Origin: Patescibacteria group bacterium UBA5738
GTDB lineage: Bacteria > Patescibacteriota > Minisyncoccia > Minisyncoccales > UBA5738
Assembly (NCBI GenBank): GCA_002419295.1
Contig: DIFW01000017.1
Location: 57,099 to 121,098 of the forward strand
DNA length: 64,000 bases
Reading direction: 5' to 3'
The stretch's first letter is position 1; the number at the start of each line of letters is the position of its first letter. Below the pieces are notes generated by a model. That model was not told the origin of the DNA. It did not search any database and worked only from the letters and a program-made list of their open reading frames with translations. Below, piece by piece: positions 308-48,896 of the stretch. Made by a program: the position numbers and the translations under genes.

Positions 308-994
308 TTAACGCCCCCCTTCAAGCACCGCGACAAATTCGCCCTTCAAAGGGTCTTTTTTTATTTTGGCGATCACTTCGGCGATCGTGCCGCGATAGAT
401 GGTTTCAAAGGTTTTGGTCAATTCTCGGCAAACAACGAGGCGACGGGTTTTGTCTGGATTCAATTCGTCGATTTCGGACAGGGTTTTTAAAATTCGGAAA
501 TTGGATTCGTAGAACACCGCGGTGAATTCGTTTGCCAGCAGGTCTTCAAAGTATTTTTTGCGTTTGTTTTTCGCCGGCGGGAAACCGGCAAACATAAATT
601 TGTCCGTGGCAAAACCGGAAACGCTCAACGCCGCGATCGCGGCATTCGCGCCCGGAACGGGAATAATTTTAACACTATCGCCGAATTCTTCCACCACCGC
701 TTCCACCAGCCGGTTGCCCGGGTCACTGATACCGGGCGTGCCGGCGTCGGAGACCAGCGCCAAGTTTTTTCCCTCCTTCAGCAATTTTAAAATTTCGCCG
801 GTCTTTTCTGCGTCCGAATGCTGGTGGTAACTCAACAGCGGCTTTGCGATTTCATAATTATCAAGCAAAACTTTGGTCACGCGCGTGTCTTCGCACAATA
901 TCAAATCCGCGCTTTTCAGCGCTTCAACCGCCCGCAATGTCATATCGTCCAAATTGCCGATCGGCGTCGCCGCAATGTATAAAATCCCGGACAT
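308..994 (-). CDS. rsmI: 16S rRNA (cytidine1402-2'-O)-methyltransferase, tetrapyrrole-methylase fold
   Basis: 228 aa. ILYIAATPIGNLDDMTLRA...ILCEDTR is the typical RsmI N-terminus. Confidence 0.85.
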   Translation of the reverse strand: MSGILYIAATPIGNLDDMTLRAVEALKSADLILCEDTRVTKVLLDNYEIAKPLLSYHQHSDAEKTGEILKLLKEGKNLALVSDAGTPGISDPGNRLVEAVVEEFGDSVKIIPVPGANAAIAALSVSGFATDKFMFAGFPPAKNKRKKYFEDLLANEFTAVFYESNFRILKTLSEIDELNPDKTRRLVVCRELTKTFETIYRGTIAEVIAKIKKDPLKGEFVAVLEGGR

Positions 995-996
995 AA

Positions 997-2028
997 TTAT
1001 TCGTTTAATCTTTTATTGCGCATCAAATAATCCCTTACAAAGTCGTATAAAACACCAAACAAAGGAATCGCCAAAATCGCGCCGGCGACTCCCCAAATCG
1101 CTTTTCCGGCCAAAAGCGAGAGTAGCACCAATATCGCGGGAAACTCAATGAATTTCTTTGAAAGCAAGGGAATCACCAGATTGTTTTCCAATTGCTGGAT
1201 TATCGTGAAAATCGCAATCGCGGCCGCCGCCTTTTGCCACGAATCAAGCAACGCTACCAGCGCGATCACCGCGCCCGAAGCAATCGGGCCGATAAACGGC
1301 ACAATATCGGCCACTCCCGCGAAAAATCCCAGAAACACCGGATAGCGAATATCCAGCGCCCAGCATGCCAGCGAAGTGAACACCCCCACCGCCAGCATTC
1401 CCGCCAAACGCACCGCGAACCATCCCGAAATCTTCACTTGCGCCCTTCCCCACCAATCTAAAACGATTTTTTCCCGTTTGGCTGGAATGGCCAGCAAAAT
1501 AAATTTTTTAATGCCGGCGGCCTCCAAGGAGAAGAATGCCGCGGCGACGATTATGGTGAATGTCGTTAAAATGCCGCCAAACAATACGCCCAGCGACCCG
1601 ATAATTCCCGAAGACGCGCCCACCATCCAATCGCGGACCGCGGCGACAAACGCGTCCATGCTTTGGAAAATCACAAATCCCATTCCCGAAAGAAACGGCG
1701 ACACTTTTTCGAAATAAAGCGGGAACAACTGTCCCAATTGCTGGGTCTCAATGGCAAAAATCGGCGCGAGCCAATAAATTCCCGCCCCAAAAATTCCGAA
1801 AACGGAAAAATAAACCAAAAACACGGATGCCCCGCGCGGCACTTTCAATTTTTCCAAAAAGTCCACCGCCGGATTGAAAAGCACGGAAATAATCAACGCA
1901 AAAAGCGCCAGCGACAAAACCTCCCGCGCCAAATACAGCGCGTATCCCACCGCCAATGCCAAACCGATCTTTGCCAGCATTGCCCATGAAACATCAATTG
2001 TTTTTTTATCTCCGCCGATTGAAAACAT
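997..2028 (-). CDS. AI-2E family transporter (PerM/YhhT-like membrane protein)
   Basis: 343 aa polytopic membrane protein. C-terminal block DIVPFIGPIASGAVIAL...IIQQLENNLVIP matches the AI-2E/UPF0118 signature. Confidence 0.7.
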   Translation of the reverse strand: MFSIGGDKKTIDVSWAMLAKIGLALAVGYALYLAREVLSLALFALIISVLFNPAVDFLEKLKVPRGASVFLVYFSVFGIFGAGIYWLAPIFAIETQQLGQLFPLYFEKVSPFLSGMGFVIFQSMDAFVAAVRDWMVGASSGIIGSLGVLFGGILTTFTIIVAAAFFSLEAAGIKKFILLAIPAKREKIVLDWWGRAQVKISGWFAVRLAGMLAVGVFTSLACWALDIRYPVFLGFFAGVADIVPFIGPIASGAVIALVALLDSWQKAAAAIAIFTIIQQLENNLVIPLLSKKFIEFPAILVLLSLLAGKAIWGVAGAILAIPLFGVLYDFVRDYLMRNKRLNE

Positions 2029-2037
2029 ATTCTTTGA

Positions 2038-3309
2038 TTATAGCGCCTCTTCGAGTAAATCGCGAAACCTTGATTCGCCGCCATAAGGTCCGATCACCGC
2101 CAAATTCAACTTTTCGGGTTTGAAAATATCACGCGCCGCCTCTTGAATATCATCAACGGTCACTTGCTTTATTTTCTCATAGATTTCCTCAGGTTCCAAT
2201 ATCCGGCCTTCCAGCAATTCTTGCTCGCCGTAGAACAATCCTTTGGCATGGGACGATTCCAGCGCGATGGCGCTCCTGCCGGTGTAATTGTCTTTGGCCC
2301 GTTGCAATTCCGCCGCCGAAACTTGGCTGGCGCGAATTTTTTTAAATTCCCCCAAAATCACTTTGATGCCCTCATCCAGGCGATCGCTGTTTAAATTGGC
2401 CGTCGCCGCCAGTGAACCAGAGTCGGGATCCATTGACAATTCCGTGTGCACATCATAGACCAGCCCACGCTTGAATCTCACCTCTTCCATCAAGCGGGAA
2501 GAAAACATTCCCCCCAAAACGGTTTCCAGCAATTCCAGCGCCCGGCGACGCGGATAACTGTAGTCAAACGCTCTTACCCCCAGTGCGATCTGCGTTTGAT
2601 TAGTGTCTTTTTTATAAATCAAAACCTGCGGCGTTTCCTGCTTTTCCGCCACAGCGGCTTTTTTTGCCGGATCTTTGGCGGCAAACCGCCCGAAATATTT
2701 TTTTGTCAATTTTTCAGCTTCATTTTCGTCAAAATTGCCGGAGACGCAAACAACTGTGTTTTGCGCCGCATAATTTTTGTCCCGGTATTCCAAAAGCCGG
2801 TCGCGGGAGATACCTTTAACCGTTTCAATCGTCCCGACGATGTCCCGCCCCGCCGGCTGGTCGCCGTAAAGCGCCTGGTTCCAAACCGTCCAAATATGAC
2901 GCATCGGGTGGTCATGAAACATATTGATTTCTTCAATGATCGTTCCCCGCTCTTTTTCAATTTCTTCGGCCGGCAAAACGGAGTTCAAAAAAATATCGGC
3001 GACCAAATCAAACGCCGCTTCAAATTTTTTGCTTTGCACCTTGGCGTAATAACCGGTCATCTCCTGCGAAGTAAACGCGTTGGCAACGCCGCCCAGCCCG
3101 TCAATTTCCGAAAAAACAGCCATTTCCGTCAAGCGCTTTTTGGTGCCCTTGAATTGCAAATGCTCCAGAAAATGGGAGATACCGCTGATCTCTTTGGTTT
3201 CGTATTTGGAACCCGTACCCACCAGCGTCAAAACCGTTACCGTATCGGTGTTCGCGGAGTTTACCGTGATCAGCCTCAACCCGTTGGGCAATGTTGTTTT
3301 TTTATACAT
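2038..3309 (-). CDS. M16 family zinc peptidase (insulinase/pitrilysin-like)
   Basis: 423 aa. Inverted zinc-binding HxxEH motif (HFLEH) near the N-terminus, followed by GTKK and an M16-type domain. Confidence 0.75.
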   Translation of the reverse strand: MYKKTTLPNGLRLITVNSANTDTVTVLTLVGTGSKYETKEISGISHFLEHLQFKGTKKRLTEMAVFSEIDGLGGVANAFTSQEMTGYYAKVQSKKFEAAFDLVADIFLNSVLPAEEIEKERGTIIEEINMFHDHPMRHIWTVWNQALYGDQPAGRDIVGTIETVKGISRDRLLEYRDKNYAAQNTVVCVSGNFDENEAEKLTKKYFGRFAAKDPAKKAAVAEKQETPQVLIYKKDTNQTQIALGVRAFDYSYPRRRALELLETVLGGMFSSRLMEEVRFKRGLVYDVHTELSMDPDSGSLAATANLNSDRLDEGIKVILGEFKKIRASQVSAAELQRAKDNYTGRSAIALESSHAKGLFYGEQELLEGRILEPEEIYEKIKQVTVDDIQEAARDIFKPEKLNLAVIGPYGGESRFRDLLEEAL

Positions 3310-3360
3310 ATAATTTACCGCTGAATAATTAACGAATGTATTACTTTAAAATTTTTACGC

Positions 3361-3915
3361 TTATTTTTCAAAACCGCCAATAACCCAGTCAAATTCACCC
3401 TGCCAGTTCCGGTTCGGACAATTCCATCCCGGGCTTGCCGGATGCGGCCGGCCGCTGGTTTCCATATCAATGATCCCCAAAACAAAGAATGCTCCTCTGG
3501 CCGCATCACAATTGGCATATCCGGCGCTGTAACGATGATAACAGTAACCATAACATCCGGTGCCGGATCCCCCTCTGGGGTCTGTCGGCACTTGTTTCAG
3601 CAACCCTGCCGTTTCCAACATGCCAATGAACGGGCTGTTATTGCCGTCATTACATGGCCCTTGGTCCCATCCGTCGCAACAAGCATCCGATGAAATCGGC
3701 GGGAACCCTCCGTATTGGACATTATACATCTGCAGTGCCAGCACAATTTGCCGCATATCACTCACCCGCCGCGCGTCGCGCGCTTTTGCACGGGTATCGG
3801 TCATCGCCACCAGCACCATCCCCGATAACACACCGATGATGGAAATCACCACCAAAAGTTCGATTAAAGTAAACCCGTTCTTGCTTGCCAAATTGGATTC
3901 AAAGGGAAAAATCAT
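3361..3915 (-). CDS. Type IV pilin-like protein (prepilin N-terminal cleavage/methylation domain), paralog 1
   Basis: Class III signal KNG|[25 protein letters not shown], then a KARDARR motif and a Cys-rich variable C-terminal domain. Confidence 0.8.
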
Positions 3916-3959
3916 CTCTCTTTTTAAAATTACCCGATAATCATTTTTCGTAATGAAAA

Positions 3960-4541
3960 TTATTTTTGGCGCATCCCGACGGTGATCACGCCATAATTAA
4001 CACTGCTCGGATTGGTACTGCCATAATTAAAAAAATATCCGGACGGATAATCCGTACCGCTCACGGTGCAAGGACAAGTCCGTGTGCCGGGAGACGCCAT
4101 ATTCGGTTTTTCAAGGCGATAAGAAAGCATGTACCAATGCCCCGAACATCCGTAACCGGAAGCGTAATAGGCATAAAGATAGGTGCTGGTCGTTGTCCAC
4201 GGATAATTAACCGGATTGGTGATCGGAGTATTAACCGGGTCTGCGGGCAAACTGATATACGGCGCCAATTGCGTTTTAAAAGCGTTCCAATTAGTCTCAT
4301 TGTTGCTGATTGTCCAGCCTCTTACCGGATAGGTGCCCTTCTCCGCGTAATACAATTCCAGCGCCTTGCGGATTTGAGTGATGTCGTTAACCCTCCGCGC
4401 GTCCCGCGCTCTGGCACGCGCATCGGTCATCGCCACCAAAACCATCCCCGACAGCACGCCGATGATGGAAATCACCACCAGAAGCTCGATCAGAGTGAAG
4501 CCGTTCTTGCCCGGGTTTAATCTAGCAAAGAACTCCGGCAT
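3960..4541 (-). CDS. Type IV pilin-like protein, paralog 2 (start trimmed to [19 protein letters not shown])
   Basis: Same conserved prepilin N-terminus as paralog 1. About 150 nt near-identical to paralog 4. Confidence 0.8.
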
Positions 4542-4723
4542 TACAACTTGCCCCGCAATCACGCAAACCGCCGGTACCGGCAAATTTCATTTCTTGCAAG
4601 ACATATTAATTTTCTTTTTTGCATCCTTATCATAAAAATCCGGCTTATTATAAACACTCAATAAAACTAGTTTTTCTTGGAAATGAGAAAATCATAAAAC
4701 TCTCGCCGGATAATTACTTATGC

Positions 4724-5311
4724 TTATATTCCCAGATAACCGCATTGGCGGCAAGACCCGCCGGGAGGACAATGAATGGCAGATTTACCACTTTCCCAGG
4801 CCGCCCATTTCCACCCTAGACAATCATTGTCATTATTCGGAAATTTATCCGTTTGAAATGATAATTGATAAGCCCCATTGATAGTATTCACTGGCGACGG
4901 CAACCAATATGATCCGGGAGAGGCATAAATATATGTCCAATAAACGCGGCCAATGTCTCCGTATGACGGATCTTTAGGGATTTGCTTTAGATAAGTTACC
5001 AGCGCGGCATTGACGCTGTCGCTGCCATGCGGACCGCCGCCCCAACATTCTTCCGTGGAAGGTATCCCAAGACACACGATTTGCCCGCCCGTACCCGGAT
5101 ATGAACCGTGTTCGGCGGCATACATTTCTATCGCGGTTCTTATCTGCCGGATATCCGATACCCGCCGCGCGTCCCTTGCCTTTTCCCGAAACCCCGTCAT
5201 TGCCACCAACACCATCCCCGATAACACACCGATGATGGAAATCACCACCAAAAGTTCGATTAGGGTAAAACCTTTTTTGTTCGATTTTAGTTTGGCAAAA
5301 AAATCCGGCAT
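4724..5311 (-). CDS. Type IV pilin-like protein, paralog 3
   Basis: [39 protein letters not shown]..., with a divergent Cys-containing C-terminal domain. Confidence 0.8.
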   Translation of the reverse strand: MPDFFAKLKSNKKGFTLIELLVVISIIGVLSGMVLVAMTGFREKARDARRVSDIRQIRTAIEMYAAEHGSYPGTGGQIVCLGIPSTEECWGGGPHGSDSVNAALVTYLKQIPKDPSYGDIGRVYWTYIYASPGSYWLPSPVNTINGAYQLSFQTDKFPNNDNDCLGWKWAAWESGKSAIHCPPGGSCRQCGYLGI

Positions 5312-5321
5312 TATGCTTTAC

Positions 5322-5555
5322 TTAATGAATCATTTCCCCGGAAACATCGTAATTAACGGTTTGGTTTTTGGCGTTCTGCTGATAGAAATAATATCCCCAA
5401 AACGCGACGGTCAAAACCAGGCACACAATAATGATAACGATCTGAATTTTTTTCTTTTTCGCGCCCCGCTCCAAATCCGGCGGCGGGGCAATCTCGGTTT
5501 GCGGCTTGGCAGTATAATCGCTGAAATCAATGCCTTTATTTTGATTTGAGTCCAT
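5322..5555 (-). CDS. Small single-pass membrane protein, hypothetical, embedded in the pilin array
   Basis: 77 aa. Pro-rich N-terminus, one hydrophobic helix (IVIIIVCLVLTVAFWGYYFY). No recognisable family. Confidence 0.35.
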   Translation of the reverse strand: MDSNQNKGIDFSDYTAKPQTEIAPPPDLERGAKKKKIQIVIIIVCLVLTVAFWGYYFYQQNAKNQTVNYDVSGEMIH

Positions 5556-5566
5556 ATTTTTGAAAA

Positions 5567-6097
5567 TTATTTTTGCACCATACCAATAGTAAGAGTGCCG
5601 GAATAATTATAGGTGCCATTGGGACATTTTACCCCGGGAGATACAATACTACCCGGTTTTTCTATCCTGGCTAACAACATATACCAATGCCGGGTGAATG
5701 AAGCATCCGGGACATAAGTGCCCGTTCCCGTATAATAACTATAAGTATAAACATCGGCAGTATACGCATGTCCGGAAGAAGGCGCGTTGATCGGATCTTT
5801 GGGAAGGGCGATATAAGGCGCCAGCGGTGTCACCAGCGCTTGCCACGCGGCCGCGTCGTTGCTACTTCTCCACCCAATTGCATTAGGATAGATTGCGTTC
5901 TCCGCGTAATACAATTCCAGCGCCTTGCGGATTTGGGTAATATCGTTCACCCGCCGCGCGTCGCGCGCTCTGGCGCGCGTATCGGTCATCGCCACCAAAA
6001 CCATCCCCGACAGCGTGCCGATGATGGAAATCACCACCAGAAGTTCGATCAGAGTAAAACCATTGGATGGTTTTAACTTGGCAAAAAACTCAAACAT
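5567..6097 (-). CDS. Type IV pilin-like protein, paralog 4 (start trimmed to MFEFFAKLKPSNGFTLIE)
   Basis: Conserved prepilin N-terminus. 5' region nearly identical to paralog 2. Confidence 0.8.
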   Translation of the reverse strand: MFEFFAKLKPSNGFTLIELLVVISIIGTLSGMVLVAMTDTRARARDARRVNDITQIRKALELYYAENAIYPNAIGWRSSNDAAAWQALVTPLAPYIALPKDPINAPSSGHAYTADVYTYSYYTGTGTYVPDASFTRHWYMLLARIEKPGSIVSPGVKCPNGTYNYSGTLTIGMVQK

Positions 6098-6171
6098 TCG
6101 CCCTCGCCCCGCGGTCACGCAAAACCCGACTTCGCCGAATCCGGTTTCCCGCGGCACAAATTAACCTTTCT

Positions 6172-7563
6172 TCATCCCGAATATAACCCGCGCTTGACAT
6201 AATCGGCAAGCAAATTCATCTTCACGCGCGTCTGCGCCATAGTATCGCGATCGCGCACCGTGGCATCATCACCGGCAAGCGAATCAAAATCCACGGTAAT
6301 GCAATAGGGCGTGCCGATCTCGTCCTGGCGGCGATAGCGTTTGCCGATATTGCCAGAATCGTCAAACTCGCACATAAATTCCTCGCGCAACGCTTCATAG
6401 ACTTCCCGCGCTTTGGCGACAAGTTCGGGTTTGTTTTTCAACAACGGGAAAATTGCCGCTTTGATCGGCGCCAATCTCCGGTCAAACTTCATCACTGTGC
6501 GCGTCTCGCCGTTAACTTCCTCTTCGGCATAAGCTTTGTCCAAAAACATAAAAAACAGCCGGTTCAAACCCACGGAAGTTTCCATAATGTGGGGAATGAA
6601 TTTTTCGCCGCTTTGAGGATCGGCATAACTCAAGTCCTGCCCGGAAAATTTGGAATGCTGGCTCAAATCCCAATCGCCGCGCGCGTGGATGCCCTCCACT
6701 TCCTTGTATCCGCCCAGCGCCTTGAAATTATATTCAATGTCATACGCTTCGGAAGCATAATGCGCCAATTTTTCATGCTTGTACCAGCGGATATCGCTTT
6801 CATCCATCCCATAATTCAAATACCAGTTCCAACGAGTTTGCTTCCAATCATTATATTTTTCTTTCATCATCGACGGATGCAAAAAATACTGCATCTCCAT
6901 CTGTTCAAACTCGCGCGTGCGGAAAATAAACTGCCGCGCCACGATCTCGTTGCGAAACGCCTTGCCTACTTGCGCGATACCGAACGGCAATTTCACTCTG
7001 GCGGTATCCAGCGTGTTTTTATATTCCAAATAGATGCCGCCGCAGGTTTCCGGCCGCAAATAAACCACATTTTCTTCGCTCAACGCGTCGGTGGGAGAGC
7101 CCAGATTGGATTTGACCATCAATGAAAATCTTTTTGCCGCGGTTAAATCCGTCGATCCGCAATTGGCGCATTTGAGTTTTTTTTCGCTCCGCAGTTTGTC
7201 CAATTCGGCATTAAGAAATTCCAGCGGCTGTTTGTCCGCCGACACTCCGAATTGCTCCAGAATATGATCGGCGCGCCAGCGGGCTTTGCATTTTTTGCAA
7301 TCAACTTGCGGATCATCAAAACTGTCCACATGCCCGGAAGCGAGCCATGTCGTCGGATGCATAAAAATCGCGCTGTCCAAACCCACAACATCGTCGCGCA
7401 ACTGCACCATATGCCGCCACCACGCGTCGCGAATGTTGTTTTTCAAGAGCGTACCGTAATGGCCATAGTCATAAATCGCGGCAAACCCTCCATATATTTC
7501 CGAGGACGGAAAAACGAATCCCCTTCTTTTGGCCAACGAGATGATATTTTGCAAATAATCCAT
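6172..7563 (-). CDS. glyQS: Glycyl-tRNA synthetase (homodimeric alpha2 type)
   Basis: 463 aa. N-terminus GFVFPSSEIYGGFAAIYDYGHYG and class II aaRS motifs typical of GlyRS. Confidence 0.85.
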   Translation of the reverse strand: MDYLQNIISLAKRRGFVFPSSEIYGGFAAIYDYGHYGTLLKNNIRDAWWRHMVQLRDDVVGLDSAIFMHPTTWLASGHVDSFDDPQVDCKKCKARWRADHILEQFGVSADKQPLEFLNAELDKLRSEKKLKCANCGSTDLTAAKRFSLMVKSNLGSPTDALSEENVVYLRPETCGGIYLEYKNTLDTARVKLPFGIAQVGKAFRNEIVARQFIFRTREFEQMEMQYFLHPSMMKEKYNDWKQTRWNWYLNYGMDESDIRWYKHEKLAHYASEAYDIEYNFKALGGYKEVEGIHARGDWDLSQHSKFSGQDLSYADPQSGEKFIPHIMETSVGLNRLFFMFLDKAYAEEEVNGETRTVMKFDRRLAPIKAAIFPLLKNKPELVAKAREVYEALREEFMCEFDDSGNIGKRYRRQDEIGTPYCITVDFDSLAGDDATVRDRDTMAQTRVKMNLLADYVKRGLYSG

Positions 7564-7592
7564 ATTTCAAATGAAAAATTTAAATAGATTTT

Positions 7593-9272
7593 CTAATTTG
7601 TTTTTGGCTGGACGATGCCGCTGTTTTCAACCAGCGCCGGATCGGAAAGCGAGGCTGTGTCAATGGCAGGGGCGATTGATTCCAGCGGAATACCAGTCCA
7701 ACCGTCATTGCCTTTTATCACCGCTTGGCCGATGATCCCGGCGGTGCCGCCGATCTGGGAATTCATCGGCGTTACCGCCACTTGAAATGAAATGTTAAGC
7801 GGATTGGAAACCAGCCCTTGTCCCGCCGACATATCGCCGATGGTCCAAACGATTTCCCGGGTCGTTTGATCATATGCCAATTTTTCGGCTTGATTCTCGG
7901 GAAAAATCTTGCCGGCGGCCAATTGCGCCTCCGGCGGCAAAACCGCGCGCGCGCTCACCGCGCCGACATTCGAATAATAATTTTTCACTTGCCATGTAAC
8001 CGTATAGGTTGTCGGCGCGCCGGCCTGAGGCGGCAAAGGCCCAGTATTGCCGAATATCTCATCGCCATAGAACGCCTTTTGCGTTAATTCCAATTTGGAG
8101 CTGATTTTGGTGGTGAATTCCTCGCGCGCCGGACCGATCATTATCTTGTTGGTAAGTTCCGGCCGATTCAAACGGCTCAAATCGTCTTTCAGCTTCACCC
8201 AGAATTCCGCTTTTCCTTCGTCCATCACCGGCAGATAGGCCAACCCGTTGTTCTGCCGCCAGTCGAATACCAGCGAATTGTTGCCGGTTTGGAAATTACC
8301 GGTTTCTGATTTTATCGTCGTCAAATCATACAAATCACCTTCCAGATTATCGATTAAGACCAGATTATAAAGCTCGCTGTCGCTCACATTTTTATAATAA
8401 ATCTCGTAATGCAACCACTCTCCCGGCTTGGCGGTGTAATTGGCGTCGCCGTTGATGGTTTGCCGCAACGCGACCGTGGGCTTGACGATTTTGGTGCCTT
8501 TTTCAATTTCTTTCAACTGCATATACTGGCCGTCTTTCCAAATACCGATGCGCGCCCGAAAAACCTTTCCTTCGTTCAAAGACCCGGAAAGCCGTCCGGA
8601 GACATCAATCGTACCCGACTGGTTTTTATTCAATACCGGCACCACCCATTCGTCTTTATCGAAAGATTCCGGCGTTGAATGCGAAAATGAATACCCCGCG
8701 GGATAGTCCATATTGACGCGCAAATCGGTGAGAAGCCAATCCACATTGGAAAAATAATTTATCTTGAAGCGAAAATCTTTGTCGGCCTCCACGGTGGAAG
8801 CAATATCCATATCCAAATCCAAAGGCACCTCTTTCATTATTGTGGTAAATGTCGTCGCCGACTCAAAGCGCGCGCTCAAATTTTTCGGCTGGTAGGAAAG
8901 CACCGCGCTTGCCACTCTGGCATCGCCGGCTTTTCCCACCACGCGAAATTTGAAAGTGAAGCTTTTTTCTTCTCCGGGATAAATCGCGCCGCCCAGCTTT
9001 TCGGATTCAAGCACTTCTTTGGCAAAGATTTTATCGTCTTTAACCGAAAAATCCGGCGCCGTAAAAATCAGATTGGGATTTTCCAGCCGGAATTCGCCGT
9101 TGTTTTTGTACTTCACCACATATTCCACTTCCTGCCCCAAAACCGCTTCGCGGGGACCGAAAATTTCCAATTTCAATTCTTCTTTCGAGTAAATGTTTTT
9201 GCGCCAAAAACCATAACCCACGGCGGCAATCACTAAAACAAAAACGATTAAAATTTTAACAAATTTGCTCAT
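7593..9272 (-). CDS. Membrane-anchored DUF11-type (conserved repeat domain) surface protein
   Basis: 559 aa. N-terminal TM helix, then repeated beta-rich modules (GQEVEYVVKYKNNG..., GEWLHYEIYYKNVSDS...) that resemble DUF11/CARDB-like repeats. Confidence 0.5.
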   Translation of the reverse strand: MSKFVKILIVFVLVIAAVGYGFWRKNIYSKEELKLEIFGPREAVLGQEVEYVVKYKNNGEFRLENPNLIFTAPDFSVKDDKIFAKEVLESEKLGGAIYPGEEKSFTFKFRVVGKAGDARVASAVLSYQPKNLSARFESATTFTTIMKEVPLDLDMDIASTVEADKDFRFKINYFSNVDWLLTDLRVNMDYPAGYSFSHSTPESFDKDEWVVPVLNKNQSGTIDVSGRLSGSLNEGKVFRARIGIWKDGQYMQLKEIEKGTKIVKPTVALRQTINGDANYTAKPGEWLHYEIYYKNVSDSELYNLVLIDNLEGDLYDLTTIKSETGNFQTGNNSLVFDWRQNNGLAYLPVMDEGKAEFWVKLKDDLSRLNRPELTNKIMIGPAREEFTTKISSKLELTQKAFYGDEIFGNTGPLPPQAGAPTTYTVTWQVKNYYSNVGAVSARAVLPPEAQLAAGKIFPENQAEKLAYDQTTREIVWTIGDMSAGQGLVSNPLNISFQVAVTPMNSQIGGTAGIIGQAVIKGNDGWTGIPLESIAPAIDTASLSDPALVENSGIVQPKTN

Positions 9273-9290: not shown

Positions 9291-9836
9291 TTAATAAAAC
9301 TTTTTTGGATTCAGGCTGTTTACTCCGGACACAAAATTGCGCCTGCTTTCAGAATCATACTTAAGTTTTTTAACCTCATCGGAAGTGAAGCTTCGGAGCG
9401 ACGGATGGCTCCACCTGCCCTCTTTCACCGCTGTCTGCATAGATCTTAATTTATCTCCTCTCACCCACGCATCACCGCTCCCTCCAAGAATTCTGGCCAT
9501 CGTTTTTTTCGCTTTCTCTTTTGATGCAAATGATTCCGGAAGTGCTTTTCCCCACGATTCCGCCAGCGCCGGCGCGATTTTTTTCAATTGCTCCGACCCC
9601 TGCGCGCCATAATATTTTTTAATTTCTTCTTTAGTTTTTCCGGATTTTTCTTGTATTTTTGGAGCAATCGTCTTGGCCTTATCTGTTGTTATATTGGAAC
9701 GACTGCCGCCAAACCGCGATGTCGGGCGATTTAAAAGATCCCCGCCTTCGGAGAACGAATGACCCAAAACATTTTCATTCTCGTTGCTGTTTTCCGGTTT
9801 TGTGCCGCCGCCAAAAAAATTTCCAAAGATTGACAT
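9291..9836 (-). CDS. Hypothetical low-complexity protein
   Basis: 181 aa. Gly/Ser/Lys-rich, no TM helix and no recognisable motif. Confidence 0.3.
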   Translation of the reverse strand: MSIFGNFFGGGTKPENSNENENVLGHSFSEGGDLLNRPTSRFGGSRSNITTDKAKTIAPKIQEKSGKTKEEIKKYYGAQGSEQLKKIAPALAESWGKALPESFASKEKAKKTMARILGGSGDAWVRGDKLRSMQTAVKEGRWSHPSLRSFTSDEVKKLKYDSESRRNFVSGVNSLNPKKFY

Positions 9837-9848: not shown

Positions 9849-10892
9849 TTAAAAAATTGCAAACAGTTTAGACAAAAACAAGGCATACAAAAGGACATAA
9901 AGCCAACCCTGCCCGGAATTTATTCTGCGCGAAAATCCCGAAACTGTCAACAGCGCGGCGGCGGCGGCAAGAAACGGCAACGATATATCCAAAACCGCGC
10001 CATCAACCGGCAGAGGTGAAAACATCGCGGCAATACCGGCCACCAGCAATAAATTCACCGCGACGCCGGAAAAGACATTCCCCAAGGCCAATTCATATCT
10101 TTTTTTGGCGATCACCGCGAAGCTCCCCCACAATTCGGGCATTGCCGCAAAAATCGCCAGCGCCGAAACCGCCAAAATCGAAGCGGAAACCGGCAATAAA
10201 TCCGCGGTTCCGGCAAGCGATTCAATCGTGAAATTTGCCGCGATCGCCAGCAAAAGCACACCGCCCAGCCCAAGAAAAACCGCGGCGGGAAAATCCTTGG
10301 CGCGGCGGTTAAACCCGCGGCTGAATCGCGCCCCCACCATTTCGACTATGCCCGGAGTACTGCCGAATATCGACGGCGTCACGACATCCCGCGGCGTAAA
10401 TTTGCGGACGCGCCCATGTGAAATTAAAAATACGGCGCAAGCCGAAAACGCGGCCAGCATCAGCAACCCTTCGCCGAAAACAATGATTCCATCAATGGCG
10501 CAAAAACAAAATATCGCCGCGGCGGCTACCAGAAGCGGCGCGTCGGCATCCGTACATTCGCGATTGATCGGCAAATTTTTGGCCGCGATCGCGGACGCGC
10601 CCGCCACCAGCAAGATATTGGCGATCGACGAACCCAAAAGAACCGGCAAGACCAACTCCGGCCGGCCGGTTAAAACGGCGGCAAGGGCCAGCGCCAATTC
10701 GGGCAGAGCCGCGCCAATGGCAATCGCCGCGAATCCCGCCGCGACATCTTTGCTGAAAAACCGCGCGGCGGCGGCGGAAAACAACGCGGCGCCTTGCAAC
10801 AGCGCGACCACCGAAACGATAAATATGAATAGCCAAATAAAAATTTCCACGGACAAAATTGAAAATGTAAATATCAAAATGGAAAATGACAA
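9849..10892 (-). CDS. Ca2+/cation antiporter, CaCA family (YrbG-like)
   Basis: 347 aa polytopic protein with two alpha-repeat motifs (GAALPEL... and AAMPELWGS...GNVFSG..NLLLVAG). Confidence 0.55.
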   Translation of the reverse strand: MSFSILIFTFSILSVEIFIWLFIFIVSVVALLQGAALFSAAAARFFSKDVAAGFAAIAIGAALPELALALAAVLTGRPELVLPVLLGSSIANILLVAGASAIAAKNLPINRECTDADAPLLVAAAAIFCFCAIDGIIVFGEGLLMLAAFSACAVFLISHGRVRKFTPRDVVTPSIFGSTPGIVEMVGARFSRGFNRRAKDFPAAVFLGLGGVLLLAIAANFTIESLAGTADLLPVSASILAVSALAIFAAMPELWGSFAVIAKKRYELALGNVFSGVAVNLLLVAGIAAMFSPLPVDGAVLDISLPFLAAAAALLTVSGFSRRINSGQGWLYVLLYALFLSKLFAIF

Positions 10893-11014: not shown

Positions 11015-14000
11015 TTAGCATTTTTTTATCCCCAGCCAAATAGGCTGTCCCGCGATCTTGGCATCAACCGCCGCCGCGGTTTTGTCCGGTTTTTTAAACT
11101 CTAAATCGGCCGCTTTGGTTTCTTTGGCGATTATGAGTCGATTTTTTTCAATCACAACCCTCAATTCGCCTTCGGCAACGCAATAAACGGCAATTTTATC
11201 CGCCGGAGTAAATTTGGCGGTCTTGCGCAATTCCTGGATTTGGCGCATAGTTTCGCGGACACTGCCTTCCTCTTTCAATTCGGGCGTGATGTTCCAATCA
11301 ATTTCAACCGGCACTTTCAATTCCGAATTGAATTCAATGGTTTTCACATTTACTTCGCCGGCCAGAAGATCGCGCAATTCGCCGCTCAATCCGCCCGCGC
11401 CGGCGATAACCAGCTTTGCCAGCGGCTGGCGCACCTTCACGCCGCGCTTGGCGCGTTCGGCCAAAACCAGCGCACAAACCTTGCGCGCCCGCTCCATTTG
11501 CGCTTCCAATTTCGCGTCAATCATTTTTTTATCCGCCTCCGGATATGCTTCCAAATGCGCGGATTTCGCGTTGGCAAAATCGTTCCCCGACAAATCTTGC
11601 CAAATCTCTTCGGCCAAAAACGGCGCCAGCGGCGCGCAAACTTTGGCAAATTCGGCCAAAACATAAGCGAAGATTTTTGCCGCTTGGTTCAATCTCGCCG
11701 CGCTTTGCGGATGTTGCAAGCGCTTGCGCGAACGGCGCACATACCAAAGCGACAGATCGTCAATGGCAAACTTTTCCGCGGTTCTTGCCGCGCGGGTGAT
11801 ATCATAAGCGTCAAGACCGGCGGCGATTTTCGCAATCTCTGAATGCAAGCGCGACACAATCCAGCGGTCAAGCACATCCGCCGGCGCGACAGACACGGGA
11901 GCTTTGATTTTCGGCGCGTAAGTTTTCAAGAATATATGGCAATTCCGCAAAGTCATCAAAAACTTATTCTTTGCCAGCGCCAAATCTTTTTCGTTGTACA
12001 GCTTGGAATCCCCCGGATCATTGACGGTGTAAAAATACCACCGCACCGCGTCGGCGCCGTATTTTTCCACCATCTCCCATGGATTCACCACATTGCCTTT
12101 TGATTTGGACATTTTTTCGCCTTTCTCGTCCAACACATGCCCCATTGACACCACATTTTTATAGGGCGCGCCGAATTTCAGCGCCGTGGACAGCGCCAAC
12201 AAAGTGTAAAACCACCCTCTCGTTTGATCAATCGCCTCGCAAATGAAATCCGCGGGAAAAGCCGCCGGCGGCAAATCTTGCGACTGGCCCTTTTGTCGAG
12301 GCCAAAATTCTTGTGCAAACGGCATCGCCCCCGAATCCAGCCAGCAATCCAAAACCTCGGCGGCGCGCGCCATTCTTTGCCCGCATTTTTCGCAAATCGG
12401 CGCGACTTCGTCGATAAACGGGCGATGCAGGTCGATTTCCATGTCATCGCCAAACGGCAATTGCTTAAATTCAATTTCACGGGACTTGCCGGTATCGATT
12501 TTTTTGATTTTGCCCCGATAACGGCCGTCCAAAATTGCCGGCGCGGACATCCCTTTGAGCGTGTGCTCCAACATCGTCAGCGGCAATTCGTGGGATACCA
12601 AAACAATATTTTTACCTTCGTATTTTTTATCAATCTCGGCCATTAATTCATACATCCGGCGGCGAATCATCACCAAACTTTCGCCTTTGGGAGGTTTGGC
12701 GGCGAGAGGATTTTTTTTTGTTGATATGTAATCCCAAAAATTCTTGGGGTCTTGGCCGTTGAAAATTCCCACATTGGCTTCGCGCAATCTTTTGTCATAG
12801 ATGATTTTGGCGCCGGTGGTTTTTGCGATGATTTGCGCCGTTTCTTTCGTCCGCAACAAATCCGAGGCGATAATCAAATCTATTTTTTCTTTGGCCAGTT
12901 TTTTTGCCGAAACCTCCGCTTGTTTTCCGCCTTTTTGAGTGAGCGGCAACGGATCGGCCTCCGGCCAGCAAGAAGCGATTTTTTTAACTTGCCGTTGAGA
13001 GTGGCCGTGGCGAAAAACAAAATATCGGTTCTTTGAATATTTTTGTTCGAGCAAATCGCGGACCGAACCAAAAACTTCCCGATGGCCGCAATCGCATTGC
13101 CACACCGGCAGAGGCGTGCCCCAGTAGCGGTCGCGCGAAATCGCCCAATCTTTCACTTCGCGCAACCATTCGCCAAACCGCCCTTCTTTCAAATGCGGCG
13201 GCACCCAATTTATCTTTTGGTTGTTTTTGAGCAAATCATTTCTCAACGCCGTCATTTTGATAAACCAGCTCTTTTTGGCATAGTACAGCAATGGTGTTTT
13301 GCACCGCCAGCAAAACGGATAATCGTGTTCATACGCTTCGGTTTTAAAAAGCAATCCCTTTTCTTTTAAATCGGCGATGATCAAGGAATCGGCATCCTTG
13401 ACAAACATCCCCGCCCATTTGGGAACATCCGGCAAAAAACCGCCGTCTTCGCCGACATTCAAAATCACGGGGAATACCGGCGCGCCGTTTTTTTCCCGTT
13501 GGCGGTTTTCTTTTTTGATCACTTCCATATCTTCGGCGCCGAACGCCGGCGCGATATGGACAATTCCCGTACCGTCAACCGCCGACACAAAGTCCGCAGC
13601 AATCGTCTCGTAAATGATTTTTGATTCTTCGGTTTTGACCGGAAACGGCGCCCGATACCGCAATCCGATCAAGCTATTGCCTTTTATATCTCGGACAATT
13701 TCGTATTCGCCGCCCAAAACTTCAACGCGGTCTTTGGCCAAAACCAAACCGCCGCTCTCTCCGTTTCTTGGCTTCGCCAACACATAATCCAGCGCCGGAT
13801 TCACCGCGGCGGCAACATTGGCCGGCAATGTCCACGGCGTAGTGGTCCAAACCAACAGCGCAGCATTTTTAAATTCCGGACTAACAAGGGGAAATTTGAC
13901 ATACACCGAAGGGTCTTTCACTCTTTTGTAGCCCTGCGCCACTTCATGGCTGGATAGCGCCGTACCGCAACGCGAGCAGTAGGGCAAAACTTTGTAATCT

Positions 14001-14506
14001 TGAAACAAAAGCTTTTTTTGCCACGCGCGCTTCAAAATAAACCACACCGACTCCATATACCGCGCGTCATAGGTGATATAAGGATTGTCCAAATCCAGCC
14101 AATAGCCGATACGCTCGGTAAGTTTGCGCCATTCGCCAATCTGCTCAAAAACCGAATCGCGGCATTCTTTATTGAATTTTTTAATGCCGTATTTTTCGAT
14201 GTCTTTTTTGCTGTGAAGGCTAAGTTTTTTCTCAATTTGCAATTCCACCGGCAACCCGTGCGTATCCCATCCGGCGCGGCGCCGGACGCGAAACCCCGCC
14301 ATAGTCTTGTAGCGGCAAATTAAATCTTTGAAGACCCGCGTTTCCATATGGTGTATCCCCGGGCGCGCGTTGGCCGTGGGCGGCCCCTCATAAAACACAA
14401 AATCCTTTTTGCGCCGAGGCGTTCTTTTGACCGATTTTTCAAAAATCAAGTTCTCTTTCCAAAACTTGACGATATTTTCCTCATTTTTGTTGAAATCCTT
14501 CTCCAT
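11015..14506 (-). CDS. ileS: Isoleucyl-tRNA synthetase with an embedded histidine-phosphatase (PGAM-like) domain
   Basis: 1163 aa. HIGH-type PGIHH, editing-domain motif GTGIVHIAPAFGAED, WAISRDRYWGTPLP and KMSKSKGNVV. A block of about 190 aa inserted between WAISRDR...CDCGH and IDLHRPFIDE carries RHGHS and LVSHE motifs. Confidence 0.9.
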   Translation of the reverse strand: MEKDFNKNEENIVKFWKENLIFEKSVKRTPRRKKDFVFYEGPPTANARPGIHHMETRVFKDLICRYKTMAGFRVRRRAGWDTHGLPVELQIEKKLSLHSKKDIEKYGIKKFNKECRDSVFEQIGEWRKLTERIGYWLDLDNPYITYDARYMESVWFILKRAWQKKLLFQDYKVLPYCSRCGTALSSHEVAQGYKRVKDPSVYVKFPLVSPEFKNAALLVWTTTPWTLPANVAAAVNPALDYVLAKPRNGESGGLVLAKDRVEVLGGEYEIVRDIKGNSLIGLRYRAPFPVKTEESKIIYETIAADFVSAVDGTGIVHIAPAFGAEDMEVIKKENRQREKNGAPVFPVILNVGEDGGFLPDVPKWAGMFVKDADSLIIADLKEKGLLFKTEAYEHDYPFCWRCKTPLLYYAKKSWFIKMTALRNDLLKNNQKINWVPPHLKEGRFGEWLREVKDWAISRDRYWGTPLPVWQCDCGHREVFGSVRDLLEQKYSKNRYFVFRHGHSQRQVKKIASCWPEADPLPLTQKGGKQAEVSAKKLAKEKIDLIIASDLLRTKETAQIIAKTTGAKIIYDKRLREANVGIFNGQDPKNFWDYISTKKNPLAAKPPKGESLVMIRRRMYELMAEIDKKYEGKNIVLVSHELPLTMLEHTLKGMSAPAILDGRYRGKIKKIDTGKSREIEFKQLPFGDDMEIDLHRPFIDEVAPICEKCGQRMARAAEVLDCWLDSGAMPFAQEFWPRQKGQSQDLPPAAFPADFICEAIDQTRGWFYTLLALSTALKFGAPYKNVVSMGHVLDEKGEKMSKSKGNVVNPWEMVEKYGADAVRWYFYTVNDPGDSKLYNEKDLALAKNKFLMTLRNCHIFLKTYAPKIKAPVSVAPADVLDRWIVSRLHSEIAKIAAGLDAYDITRAARTAEKFAIDDLSLWYVRRSRKRLQHPQSAARLNQAAKIFAYVLAEFAKVCAPLAPFLAEEIWQDLSGNDFANAKSAHLEAYPEADKKMIDAKLEAQMERARKVCALVLAERAKRGVKVRQPLAKLVIAGAGGLSGELRDLLAGEVNVKTIEFNSELKVPVEIDWNITPELKEEGSVRETMRQIQELRKTAKFTPADKIAVYCVAEGELRVVIEKNRLIIAKETKAADLEFKKPDKTAAAVDAKIAGQPIWLGIKKC

Positions 14507-14684: not shown

Positions 14685-14975
14685 TTATTTCAACACTTCC
14701 GCGTCTTCTTTGATTTTTTCGGCTAAAATCATTTTCACCAGCGACTGATAGGGCACATCGCGGCGATTAGCCATTTCCTTCAAGCGATAAATCATATTTT
14801 CCGGCAAGCGGATGGAAACACTGCGCAAGGAAGGATTCAGATTTGGCAAAACGGAATTGGTTGGCGCGTCGCTCCAATCAATATAATCCGCGCTGTCATG
14901 TTTTGCCCAGAATGCGCGCTCTTCGTTTTCATCTTTAAATTTGGGAATCTGTTTTAAATTATTTTTTTTGTTCAT
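14685..14975 (-). CDS. brnA: BrnA-like antitoxin (ribbon-helix-helix) of a BrnT/BrnA type II TA pair
   Basis: 96 aa. EERAFWAKHDSADYIDW...RLPENMIYRLKEMANRRDVPYQSLVKMILAE is a typical BrnA. Overlaps the upstream toxin gene by 17 nt. Confidence 0.7.
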   Translation of the reverse strand: MNKKNNLKQIPKFKDENEERAFWAKHDSADYIDWSDAPTNSVLPNLNPSLRSVSIRLPENMIYRLKEMANRRDVPYQSLVKMILAEKIKEDAEVLK

Positions 14976-15276
14976 ATTGTTTTTGATAAATAATTTTTTC
15001 TTTTTTGCTCATCGTCCTTGCCGAAATGATTCTAATTTTATTTTTTCTGATCGTAAACGCTTCAAAAAGCAATCTGTTTTTATTGGTTTTTCCAAGCGCG
15101 TAATAACGAACTTCATCCTTGCCGGAATGTTTATCGTCGGATTGAAGCAAAAGCGGCCGGTTGAAAAAAATTTCCTCGCTTTCCCAAAATGCCACCCTGT
15201 GTTTTCCCCAATTTTTATCAATGTTGCCGCTATCCCAGTCAAATCCAACAATTTCGGAAAAATTAAAACCTCTCAT
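14959..15276 (-). CDS. brnT: BrnT-like ribonuclease toxin (DUF497)
   Basis: 105 aa. FDWDSGNIDKNWGKHRVAFWESEEIF matches the BrnT/DUF497 N-terminal signature. Confidence 0.75.
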   Translation of the reverse strand: MRGFNFSEIVGFDWDSGNIDKNWGKHRVAFWESEEIFFNRPLLLQSDDKHSGKDEVRYYALGKTNKNRLLFEAFTIRKNKIRIISARTMSKKEKIIYQKQYEQKK

Positions 15277-38130: not shown

Positions 38131-39267
38131 TCAATATTTTTTAATCGGCATTATAATATAAATAAAATCGGTTTCATTGTTGAATTTCAACAACCCCGGC
38201 CCGTCATCTCCAGAAAATTCAAAAATACATTCATCGTTTTTTAAGGCGGATAATCCGTCAATTAAAAAACGGCAATTAAAAACAATCGACATATCTTTTC
38301 CGGACGCGGAATTTATTTTTAATTCACCCTCATATTCCCCCAGCTCCGCGGAGTGGCTTGAAATTTTTATTGATTTATTTTTAATTGAAACATTAAAAAC
38401 CACCTCGCTGTTTTTTCCCGCAAAAATACCCGCGGGTTTTAAATGTCCCATTATTTCTTTTTTGGAAAATTCCGCCGATGCCGCGTATGAAGCGGGAATT
38501 ATCGCCTGATAATCGGGAAAATCACCATCGATAAGCCGGCTAAAAAACCGGATTCGCGGCTCGTCAATATCCGCGCCATTAAACAAATCTATTGTTATTT
38601 GATTACCAGATAAATATATGTTTATATTTTTTGAAATATCTCCGAATATCGCGATAATTTCGCGCGCCGCCCTTGCGGGCAAAGTTATTGCGTAATCTTT
38701 GGAAATTTTATTTGACGCGGTAATGGGAATAGTTTTTTCTCCCAACCGAAAACTGTCAGTGGCGACAAATTTTATTTTATTGGCGCCAACAACCATATAA
38801 ACCCCGTTAATTTCCGGTTTCACCGAAGAAACTCCGGTAAAACCAACAACACAAGACAACGCTTGGCAAAACAAATCCGCGCGAACGCTAAAAAAATCAC
38901 CATCACCAATAAAGGGAATCACGGGAAATTCTTCCGCGGATAACCCGTTTAAATTTGTTTTTGTTTTTCCGTCAATAATGGAAATGGAATTTTTTTGGGT
39001 TTCAATTGTTAGTGTTGGTCCGGGAAGCGATCCTATTAAACTTGATAAAGTTTGAGTTGGTAAAACAATCGCGCCATCCTCTTCAACTTTAGCAAGAGTT
39101 TCCCATAGCACCCCTGTTTCCAGATTGGTCGCGGCAATACCCATTGAATTATTTTCAACTTTTAACATAATATTTCCCAATATGGGTAATGTTAAATCTT
39201 TTCCTGTAACTTTTTCAACATAAGAAATCGCTTTTTTGAGTTTTTCTTGTAAAATTTTAACTTTCAT
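38131..39267 (-). CDS. dnaN: DNA polymerase III beta sliding clamp
   Basis: 378 aa. MKVKILQEKLKKAISYVEKV...LTLPILGNIMLKV... has a three-domain clamp profile. Immediately downstream of dnaA. Confidence 0.85.
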   Translation of the reverse strand: MKVKILQEKLKKAISYVEKVTGKDLTLPILGNIMLKVENNSMGIAATNLETGVLWETLAKVEEDGAIVLPTQTLSSLIGSLPGPTLTIETQKNSISIIDGKTKTNLNGLSAEEFPVIPFIGDGDFFSVRADLFCQALSCVVGFTGVSSVKPEINGVYMVVGANKIKFVATDSFRLGEKTIPITASNKISKDYAITLPARAAREIIAIFGDISKNINIYLSGNQITIDLFNGADIDEPRIRFFSRLIDGDFPDYQAIIPASYAASAEFSKKEIMGHLKPAGIFAGKNSEVVFNVSIKNKSIKISSHSAELGEYEGELKINSASGKDMSIVFNCRFLIDGLSALKNDECIFEFSGDDGPGLLKFNNETDFIYIIMPIKKY

Positions 39268-41724: not shown

Positions 41725-42429
41725 ATGAATATCTTTGATGTTTTAATCTATCATCCCCTTTTTAATATTCTTATTGTTTTATACCAATGGCTGGGAGATT
41801 TTGGATTGGCGGTAATCGCGCTCACAATACTGATTCGGTTTTTGCTTTATCCCCTGGCCGCGAACGCGGTTCGGATGCAAAAAATTACCGCGCGCATTCA
41901 GCCGCGGATGAAAGAAATTCAAGAAAAATATAAAAACGACAAAGAAAAACAAGCGTTGCTGATGATGCAATTATGGAAAGAGCACAAAATCAATCCGATG
42001 AGCAGTTTTTTTCTGTTGTTGGTGCAATTGCCGATACTCTGGGGGCTTTATTATGTTTTTTGGAACGGGATGAAAAACGGTTCGTTATCAATGTTATACG
42101 ATTTTGTTCCCAACCCGGGGGCGATTGATCCGATGTTTTTGGGCGCAGTGTCTTTATCGGAAGCGTTTCCTCCTTTTGCGATCGCGGCGGGGATTTTGCA
42201 GTTTATTCAGACCAAAATGATGGCGCCGGCGATGCCGGATAAAAATGGCGGAGAAAAAAGCCAAAGCGAGCGCTTCGCGGCAATGATGCAAACTCAAGCC
42301 CTTTATGTTTTTCCGGCCGTTACAATATTGATTTTTTGGGGATTGCCGTCTGCGCTGGGGCTTTATTGGATTGCTTCCGGCGTATTTTCTATCATTCAGC
42401 AATATTATATTTTGAAAAAAAACAGCTGA
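41725..42429 (+). CDS. yidC: Membrane protein insertase YidC (short form)
   Basis: 234 aa polytopic protein. LLYPLAANAVRMQKITARIQPRMKEIQEKYKNDKEKQ...LWKEHKINPM is the Oxa1/YidC core. Confidence 0.85.
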   Translation: MNIFDVLIYHPLFNILIVLYQWLGDFGLAVIALTILIRFLLYPLAANAVRMQKITARIQPRMKEIQEKYKNDKEKQALLMMQLWKEHKINPMSSFFLLLVQLPILWGLYYVFWNGMKNGSLSMLYDFVPNPGAIDPMFLGAVSLSEAFPPFAIAAGILQFIQTKMMAPAMPDKNGGEKSQSERFAAMMQTQALYVFPAVTILIFWGLPSALGLYWIASGVFSIIQQYYILKKNS

Positions 42430-44990: not shown

Positions 44991-45008
44991 GTTCCAATTT
45001 TTGGTTTT

Positions 45009-45656: not shown

Positions 45657-45668
45657 ATTTTAAATTTT

Positions 45669-46109: not shown

Positions 46110-46291
46110 TATATCATCCTTCCATTTTCCCCGCAAAATTTCGCGCGTTAAAAACCGCCGCGTTTTGGCCCGAATATGGTTTTGTGAAAGCCATTTCGCG
46201 AGTGAAATATATTTGATTTCTTTTGCAATCCCCAACGAGGGGTTACGCTGTAATTTCTTGACAGATAGATTGGGTTTGATAATGTGAAAAT

Positions 46292-46633: not shown

Positions 46634-46636
46634 TTT

Positions 46637-48895: not shown

Positions 48896-48896
48896 G

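Follow-up and report, generated by a model that had tools for sequence, protein, structure and literature searches.

Why should an isoleucyl-tRNA synthetase (IleRS), an essential enzyme of protein synthesis, carry a phosphatase in the middle of its catalytic core? The question is raised by a 64,000-nucleotide stretch of contig DIFW01000017.1 from the uncultured, tiny-genome Patescibacteria group bacterium UBA5738 (the whole stretch is called the window here), in which a preliminary description, made from the letters alone, had placed a histidine-phosphatase domain resembling phosphoglycerate mutase (PGM), in frame, within the catalytic core of the ileS product. The domain is indeed there. Pfam His_Phos_1 (PF00300) matches aa 497-656 of the protein with 110.5 bits against a gathering score of 21.7 (E=1.1e-31), so that the region is not merely an expanded linker of an ordinary IleRS. 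Its position, first given as 12440-13040, was mapped to 12437-13039, and the boundaries at aa 490-690 give it a length of 201 aa, which puts the earlier estimate of about 190 right to within 10 aa. AlphaFold models the insert as a separate, confidently predicted unit with the histidine-phosphatase alpha/beta fold, as the preliminary description had proposed to check; it is an independently folding domain on the IleRS surface, outside the aminoacylation chemistry.

The domain is inserted into a zinc knuckle, between its two Cys pairs (C471/C473 and C705/C708); the knuckle is probably the CP3 element. In alignments with insert-less relatives the domain behaves as a clean indel: their linker is 12-17 aa long, as against approximately 205 aa here, and in the Thermus thermophilus enzyme (1ILE) the 10 residues 478-487 are those replaced. 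The motifs that had been quoted were all recovered in their places, namely the conserved 22-residue block (aa 454-475), YFVFRHGHSQRQ with its Arg-His-Gly (aa 495-506; window 13024-12989, minus strand), the second His motif LVSHELPL (aa 636-643), IDLHRPFIDE (aa 691-700), CEKCG (aa 705-709) and EVLDCWLDSG (aa 717-726). Examination of the putative catalytic residues in an alignment of 121 sequences, including the window protein, shows that R499, H500, R552 and H639 are invariant. Such a set would make the domain a phosphomonoesterase that forms a phospho-histidine on His500; the phosphate would be held by Arg499 and Arg552, and Glu576 would be the acid and His639 the second His.

By these sequence features, the insert is a genuine histidine phosphatase of branch 1 and belongs to the short "phosphatase" type (PhoE/PspA/CobC-like). 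The top NCBIfam match is the short archaeal model of the cofactor-dependent mutase (dPGM; NF038349 dPGM_arch), at 83-87 bits against a cut-off of 225, and the other mutase models are likewise below theirs (GpmB, 74-79 vs 261; TIGR01258, 28 vs 81.7), as are the models of named small phosphatases (CobC TIGR03162, 79-82 vs 162.9; PspA, 62-67 vs 350; SixA, 28.7 vs 74.5) and of the RNase H/acid phosphatase (NF005567, 77-81 vs 326). The dPGM-specific substrate residues, which we take to be an Arg or Tyr after the catalytic Glu, an Arg-Arg pair and His-Gly-Asn, appear to be absent: the sequence of the insert reads E576-A-N-V-G and H639-E-L, with no Arg-Arg pair. Charge was also considered as a sign of RNA binding and proved uninformative, since the insert is not unusually basic and the IleRS core is equally so.

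The architecture is conserved well beyond the window. The exact sequence of the window protein was not on record. PF00300 was found in all 120 of the best full-length homologues (53-94% identity, 1141-1244 aa), which were collected from JGI, ENA, NCBI and Logan and of which the named ones are Minisyncoccales, Nealsonbacteria, Paceibacterota or Parcubacteria. The insert and the core are similar in mean conservation (0.58 and 0.47-0.65, respectively). The insert is under purifying selection comparable to that on the synthetase core: in pairwise comparisons with four relatives, dN/dS was 0.12-0.14 in the insert, as against 0.11-0.17 in the N-terminal core and 0.15-0.24 in the C-terminal part, values which are rough because dS is near saturation.

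The distribution of the domain was assessed with a profile of the insert, which found at least 411 relatives among the GTDB species genomes (one genome per species); the counts that follow refer to the best 80 of these loci. In 66 of them the domain resides inside the IleRS open reading frame (ORF; ~1130-1370 aa where complete), and in the remaining 14 it is encoded by a free gene of ~190-227 aa. Of these 14 free genes, 13 directly follow argS and 12 directly precede an ileS that has no insert and the same orientation, with boundaries that are mostly overlaps of 4-7 nt or gaps of at most ~35 nt; one locus has an extra ORF in between, one ends too early to judge, and in one (L063) the gene lies elsewhere. 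The synteny of the clade is smpB on the minus strand, followed by argS, the phosphatase gene where it is free, ileS, recO and a gene for a DUF7619 membrane protein. Of 46 fused loci, 26 have argS immediately next to ileS, whereas in 10 of 11 free-gene loci the two are separated by 480-690 nt, occupied by the phosphatase gene (in the remaining locus, L072, an extra ORF widens the gap to ~1.7 kb). No free copy of the phosphatase was found in the fused loci. In a crude tree of IleRS cores from which the phosphatase had been removed (neighbour-joining, midpoint-rooted, no bootstrap), the insert-less enzymes form a basal grade and the fused ones a large derived clade. The ancestral form is likely to have been a gene of ~190 aa between argS and ileS, and the simplest history is that this operon partner was copied into ileS and the free copy then lost. 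The phosphatase subfamily is tied to class I synthetases, above all IleRS, in the Parcubacteria/Paceibacteria. The suggestion that the insertion might prove lineage-specific is correct in this sense; the lineage concerned is a large one, however, in which the feature comes in several forms.

These further forms were sought among 1.84 billion cluster representatives, which yielded 277 clusters at E <= 1e-30; the top 152 cluster sequences were analysed, and 84 of them are IleRS-associated and 58 free-standing. Besides the zinc knuckle (site 1, as in the window protein), two other sites within IleRS were recognized and confirmed by Pfam and by reading of the sequences. Site 2 lies after DSG...PYAQ and before FPADFI.EG.DQTRGWFY (query aa ~731-751; P0329, P0336, P0355 and L030), and site 3 lies just before the anticodon-binding domain (query aa ~864-877; P0276, P0336 and P0355). 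In several IleRS proteins there are two phosphatase domains, placed at separate sites or in tandem. Such copies share only 26-40% identity within a protein and are therefore old, and the catalytic residues are kept in all copies of the multi-domain proteins wherever the sequence covers them. For L030/L031 a tandem duplication was ruled out, the two domains being at two different sites and 40% identical. A split gene, coding for the phosphatase and the C-terminal half of IleRS, was also rejected: most of the 650-760-aa matches that suggested it start with a residue other than Met and are contig-truncated fragments. One shorter protein, P0295 (1030 aa), is IleRS-like (TIGR00392, 296 bits, below the cut-off) and apparently lacks the whole of CP1, with a phosphatase at site 1.

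The domain also has other partners. P0263 is an arginyl-tRNA synthetase (ArgRS) with a C-terminal phosphatase, and at its locus there is no ileS between argS and recO. Fusions of TsaC (Sua5/YrdC) with the phosphatase make up four clusters with 52-65% identity. P0241, present in two assemblies, is a valyl-tRNA synthetase (ValRS; 411 bits) with at least four phosphatase domains (L084/L085, 366-3947), one in the CP2 region and the others after the "PVW" strand; the fourth domain is broken off by an in-frame stop and continued in the next ORF, and the contig coverage is ~2x, so that the stop could be a sequencing error or mark a pseudogene. A second ValRS of this kind was not found in a metagenome scan, the nearest ValRS has no first insert, and we treat P0241 as a single case and not as a recurrent form. 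In Patescibacteria TsaC, a t6A enzyme, is joined (P0392-P0504) to a remarkably wide range of partners: besides the histidine phosphatase these are O6-methylguanine methyltransferase (the commonest), TruB, 2H/CPDase phosphoesterase, methylpurine glycosylase, NUDIX and GNAT. Taken as a whole, the coupling of phosphatase and synthetase is ancient, widespread and present in several independent forms.

As to function, the reading that we favour, tentatively and a little short of an even chance, is that the insert is a phosphatase which accompanies the synthetase for clean-up or product removal and acts on a substrate of the nucleotide type. Selection would keep the phosphatase one-to-one in dosage with the synthetase and close to it, and the enzyme would remove a phosphorylated small molecule linked to the cycle in which ATP gives aminoacyl-AMP and pyrophosphate, and then AMP; the leading candidates are an AMP-type nucleotide or a 2'/3'-phosphorylated adenosine nucleotide. 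We infer from the recurrent association that the coupling is functional. The free gene, the three dispersed sites and the multiple copies argue for a diffusible phosphomonoester as substrate, with an enzyme that has to be co-expressed with the synthetase and near it, rather than for a fixed geometry, as allosteric gating or access to the CCA end would require. An action on the tRNA end that depends on geometry is less likely, in view of the several positions, the free-standing gene, the TsaC fusion and a literature search that brought up no RNA end-healing histidine phosphatase.

Several observations weigh against a nucleotide clean-up enzyme. Among characterised enzymes, the nearest have unrelated metabolites as their substrates (phosphoserine, glucosyl-3-phosphoglycerate, alpha-ribazole-5'-phosphate and a riboflavin intermediate), and the insert misses all of the NCBIfam equivalog cut-offs and can therefore be filed under no named enzyme. 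Since patescibacterial TsaC is fused to many unrelated partners, fusions in these organisms can be promiscuous, and "adenylate-forming enzymes" is a weak common theme for the partners. There is also a genome in which the phosphatase has remained with argS and ileS lies elsewhere. For ValRS the evidence is one low-coverage sequence, if from two assemblies, and its closest relative is without the first phosphatase insert. A broader reading, which we hold possible but distinctly doubtful, is that the domain represents an unrecognised accessory activity of class I aminoacyl-tRNA synthetases (aaRSs) in the candidate phyla radiation (CPR), comparable to an editing domain but clearing a phosphorylated species and not a mis-acylated one. 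Candidate targets are a nucleotide by-product that inhibits the enzyme or a tRNA with a phosphorylated 3' end. The attachment would have come about repeatedly: next to the synthetase gene in an operon, at three sites and in more than one copy within IleRS, and in the ArgRS, ValRS and TsaC fusions.

The main rival holds that the domain is a housekeeping phosphatase which hitch-hikes on ileS, serves a step unrelated to translation and was fixed neutrally (constructive neutral evolution). It would have arrived by local rearrangement from the neighbouring gene, with loss of the free copy, and would be kept for its activity and tolerated by the surface loops of IleRS; candidate steps are that of the PGM reported missing from some Parcubacteria, the ARPP phosphatase of the riboflavin pathway and phosphoserine phosphatase. 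The donor gene adjoins ileS, which makes a local fusion or insertion more likely, and genes that lie side by side in these genomes are often fused end to end (the TsaC partners and ArgRS-phosphatase). PGM is reported to be absent from several shallow clades of Parcubacteria, or perhaps too divergent to be detected there (Jaffe et al. 2020, PMC7304191), and the top NCBIfam match of the insert is, as stated, a dPGM model. The scores, however, lie far below the cut-offs of the mutase models (at best 87 bits vs 225, and 28 vs 81.7 for TIGR01258). Moreover, simple loss of a stop codon does not explain in-frame internal insertion at three IleRS sites and in the ValRS case, the insertions recur in synthetases and not in arbitrary neighbours, and the within-protein copies are old and all have their catalytic residues. 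On balance we regard this explanation as unlikely, if still one to be reckoned with.

Decidedly less probable is a role in tRNA end-healing, close to one suggested in the preliminary description, in which a 2'- or 3'-terminal phosphate, or that of an opened cyclic phosphate, would be removed from damaged tRNA(Ile) or other damaged class I-bound tRNAs so that they can be recharged. The main partners, IleRS, ArgRS and ValRS, do act on tRNA and TsaC belongs to a tRNA-modification pathway; TsaC of the same phylum is also fused to phosphoesterases of the 2H/CPDase type, the zinc-knuckle insertion should emerge on the active-site side of the Rossmann fold, judging from the topology, and the gene directly upstream of ileS in the window codes for a BrnT ribonuclease toxin. 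Yet the literature provided no RNA end-healing enzyme of the histidine-phosphatase fold, the close structural neighbours all act on small molecules, and the charge of the domain is not unusually basic when compared with the IleRS core. The CCA end of a tRNA reaches only the synthetic and editing sites, whereas the phosphatase occurs at dispersed sites and as a free protein, and TsaC is not known to bind tRNA.

The domain might instead be a protein phosphatase for phospho-His, -Ser or -Thr on the synthetase or a partner, for example in SixA/PGAM5-like regulation or in reversing a kinase toxin, such as HipA, which inactivates GluRS. We consider this improbable. We know of no IleRS-directed kinase, a conserved kinase was not found in the neighbourhood of the loci examined, and the closest relatives of the insert are of the PhoE/PspA/CobC type and not of the SixA/PGAM5 type; on the other side, toxin-antitoxin genes are abundant in these genomes, and mycobacterial MutT1 offers a precedent of an RHG domain on a nucleotide enzyme that is linked to phospho-protein control (PMC11784022, PMC12407098). 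It is very improbable that the domain is a pseudo-enzyme, i.e., a module without catalytic activity that serves structure or tRNA binding: binding is indeed what many add-on domains of synthetases are for, and the RHG motif of the MutT1 C-terminal domain is dispensable for the activity tested there, but the catalytic set of Arg, His, Arg, Glu/Asp and His shows no changes, or conservative ones, across the 121 homologues and is intact in the covered duplicate copies, and purifying selection equals that on the core. An assembly chimera or mis-join, raised in the preliminary description, has practically no probability left: nothing in its favour was found beyond a slightly lower GC content of the insert (0.42-0.45 vs 0.52-0.55 in the flanks), and it is ruled out because the reading frame is continuous and the same in-frame architecture, with the same boundaries, occurs in more than 100 independent assemblies from several sources.

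The synthetase that carries the insert is an otherwise complete type-2 IleRS, and its intact motifs predict aminoacylation activity. It scores 876.2 bits with the NCBIfam ileS model (TIGR00392; cut-off 621.4), and Pfam assigns tRNA-synt_1 to aa 12-489, Anticodon_1 to aa 880-1030 and DUF5915 to aa 1052-1162, on either side of the phosphatase. The positions of the gene, its parts and the key residues are collected in Table 1. The CP1 editing motifs T221-L227 and H317 to D326, the sequence TTTPWTLP and KMSKS show no variation across the 121 sequences. The class I signature is of the GXHH form, of which G50 and H52 are invariant and H53 is conserved in at least 90% of the sequences. GXHH has been documented only in IleRS2 and is tied to mupirocin hyper-resistance, the swap from HXGH to GXHH in IleRS2 raising the Ki for mupirocin by up to ~1000-fold (PMC10485003). 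As the signature is nearly invariant in the 121 homologues, the CPR IleRS are predicted to be of the hyper-resistant type. A second ileS was not seen within the window.

Table 1. Location of the ileS gene of the window, the regions of its product and the conserved residues. Fractions give occurrence in the 121-sequence alignment.
Feature	Residues	Window position	Strand	Basis or conservation
Complete ileS, type-2 IleRS with embedded phosphatase	1163 aa + stop codon	11015..14506	-	Single uninterrupted ORF
IleRS N-terminal part: first Rossmann half, CP1 editing domain, CP2, first zinc-knuckle Cys pair	aa 1-489	13040..14506	-	Pfam tRNA-synt_1
Class I signature GIHH (GXHH, not HXGH)	G50-I-H52-H53	14348..14359	-	ORF sequence
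First half of the zinc knuckle split by the insert (CDCG)	Cys471, Cys473	13088..13096	-	121/121; align to T. thermophilus CQACG
Histidine-phosphatase insert	aa 490-690 (201 aa)	12437..13039	-	Pfam PF00300 at aa 497-656
Phosphate-binding Arg and putative nucleophilic His	Arg499-His500-Gly501	13004..13012	-	R499 121/121, H500 121/121, G501 120/121
Predicted second phosphate-binding Arg (SDLLRT motif)	Arg552	12851..12853	-	121/121; equivalent Arg present in aligned PspA and PhoE
Predicted general acid (LRE motif)	Glu576	12779..12781	-	E 102/121, D 19/121; aligns to the Glu of PhoE "LREIHLG"
Predicted second catalytic His (VSHE motif)	His639	12590..12592	-	121/121
IleRS C-terminal part: second Rossmann half, stem-contact fold, anticodon-binding domain, type-2 C-terminal domains	aa 691-1163	11018..12436	-	Pfam Anticodon_1, DUF5915
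Second half of the zinc knuckle (CEKCG)	Cys705, Cys708	12383..12394	-	121/121
KMSKS	aa 798-802	12101-12115	-	Motif location

The surroundings of ileS in the window depart in part from the synteny of the clade. Directly upstream are the BrnT toxin gene (14959-15276, minus strand) and a gene for a CopG/BrnA-type antitoxin (14685-14975, minus strand), a pair that takes the position of argS in related genomes; argS was not found anywhere in the window. Downstream, a gene for a Na+/Ca2+ exchanger (9849-10892, minus strand), with a GC content of 0.54-0.62 vs 0.38-0.45 in its neighbours, and an ORF of 181 aa (9291-9836) with no family match lie between ileS and the conserved gene for the DUF7619/DUF11 membrane protein, where related genomes have recO. 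The exchanger region has the look of a replacement or an insertion, perhaps one acquired by horizontal transfer. From 308 to 9272 the genes code for the DUF7619 protein, a class II aaRS (tRNA-synt_2b + HGTP_anticodon), an M16 peptidase, an AI-2E transporter and a TP_methylase. The same order is found downstream of the ArgRS-phosphatase fusion in L083, so the downstream neighbourhood of ileS is conserved despite the loss of argS and recO.

Farther away, dnaN (38131-39267) and dnaA (39501-40859) are followed by yidC (41725-42429), and the chromosomal replication origin is probably near 41 kb. A cluster at 43002-57966 comprises a TraG/VirB4-like P-loop ATPase (43002-44990), a protein with a T4SS-pilin domain (50380-51630) and large ORFs without a Pfam match (859 aa, 52376-54955; 995 aa, 54979-57966), and is likely a CPR type-IV-secretion-like or attachment apparatus. 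Neither a second phosphatase copy nor glycolytic genes were found in the window.

In the literature on IleRS and other aaRSs, on CPR/Patescibacteria and on domain architecture we found no description of a phosphatase within an aaRS, and recent work on the domain evolution of IleRS does not mention the insert. Already known are the accretion of domains in synthetases and the fusion of histidine phosphatases to nucleic-acid or nucleotide enzymes. Many of the fused IleRS proteins are labelled at NCBI only as "class I tRNA ligase family protein" (MFZ3073764.1; UMX47965.1, from Ca. Nealsonbacteria DGGOD1a; HOX30562.1; MFH1575423.1), presumably because of the insert. One NCBI entry is labelled "Candidatus Pacearchaeota archaeon", and the titles of many GTDB-representative metagenome-assembled genomes read "uncultured Candidatus Saccharibacteria", an apparent placeholder.

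Few enzymes are as conserved or as well studied as the aaRSs, and their add-on domains, for editing or for tRNA binding, have each revealed a new side of the quality control or regulation of translation. The repeated attachment of a phosphatase with intact catalytic residues to class I synthetases, in a huge radiation of uncultured bacteria, suggests a need beyond the textbook aminoacylation cycle, possibly the dephosphorylation of a by-product, an inhibitor or a damaged substrate beside the enzyme. An embedded enzyme of this kind would also escape the gene-level metabolic reconstruction of CPR genomes, and could add to their apparent gaps, such as the "missing" PGM.

Compared with known systems, the synthetase is closest to the solved structures of IleRS2 from Priestia megaterium (8C8U, 8C8V and 8C8W) and T. 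thermophilus (1ILE), to which the window protein is 32-38% identical. It shares with them the Rossmann fold, the CP1 editing domain, the zinc knuckles, KMSKS, the anticodon-binding domain and the type-2 C-terminal domains, and with hyper-resistant IleRS2 the GXHH signature. Unlike the protein described here, in which 201 aa replace a linker of ~10 aa in the second zinc knuckle, none of the matched IleRS structures (chains of 821-1263 aa) contains a histidine phosphatase. The insert itself resembles PhoE (1H2E), PspA (4IJ5), CobC (6E4B) and GpgP (6S2Q) in its length of ~200 aa and its Arg-His-Gly/Arg/Glu/His set, but is only ~25% identical to them, embedded in a synthetase and never free-standing in the lineage of the window.

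The gain of a second domain by a class I synthetase, whether appended or nested, is likewise seen in the NCBIfam ileS_w_GNAT proteins, in the CP1/INS editing domains, of which CP1 is also an insertion into the Rossmann fold, and in the MetRS of Mycoplasma penetrans, which bears large N-terminal ancillary domains (PMC13215547). The window protein does not belong to the first of these (NF040702, 324.7 bits vs 1999; no GNAT domain in Pfam), and it differs from all of them in that the added domain is a phosphatase, which occupies several alternative sites in up to two copies per IleRS and at least four in one ValRS. The mycobacterial RNase H/acid phosphatase (NF005567, Rv2228c type) and MutT1 (Nudix + RHG) are comparable in that each joins a branch-1 phosphatase to a nucleic-acid or nucleotide enzyme, and for both it has proved difficult to say what the phosphatase half does. 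MutT1 had been considered as a precedent for anhydride cleavage, with its RHG domain as a nucleoside-diphosphate hydrolase, and was dropped as such, the paper calling the activity of that domain unknown. Both are end-to-end fusions with other partners in other taxa, whereas in IleRS the phosphatase has been inserted into a loop.

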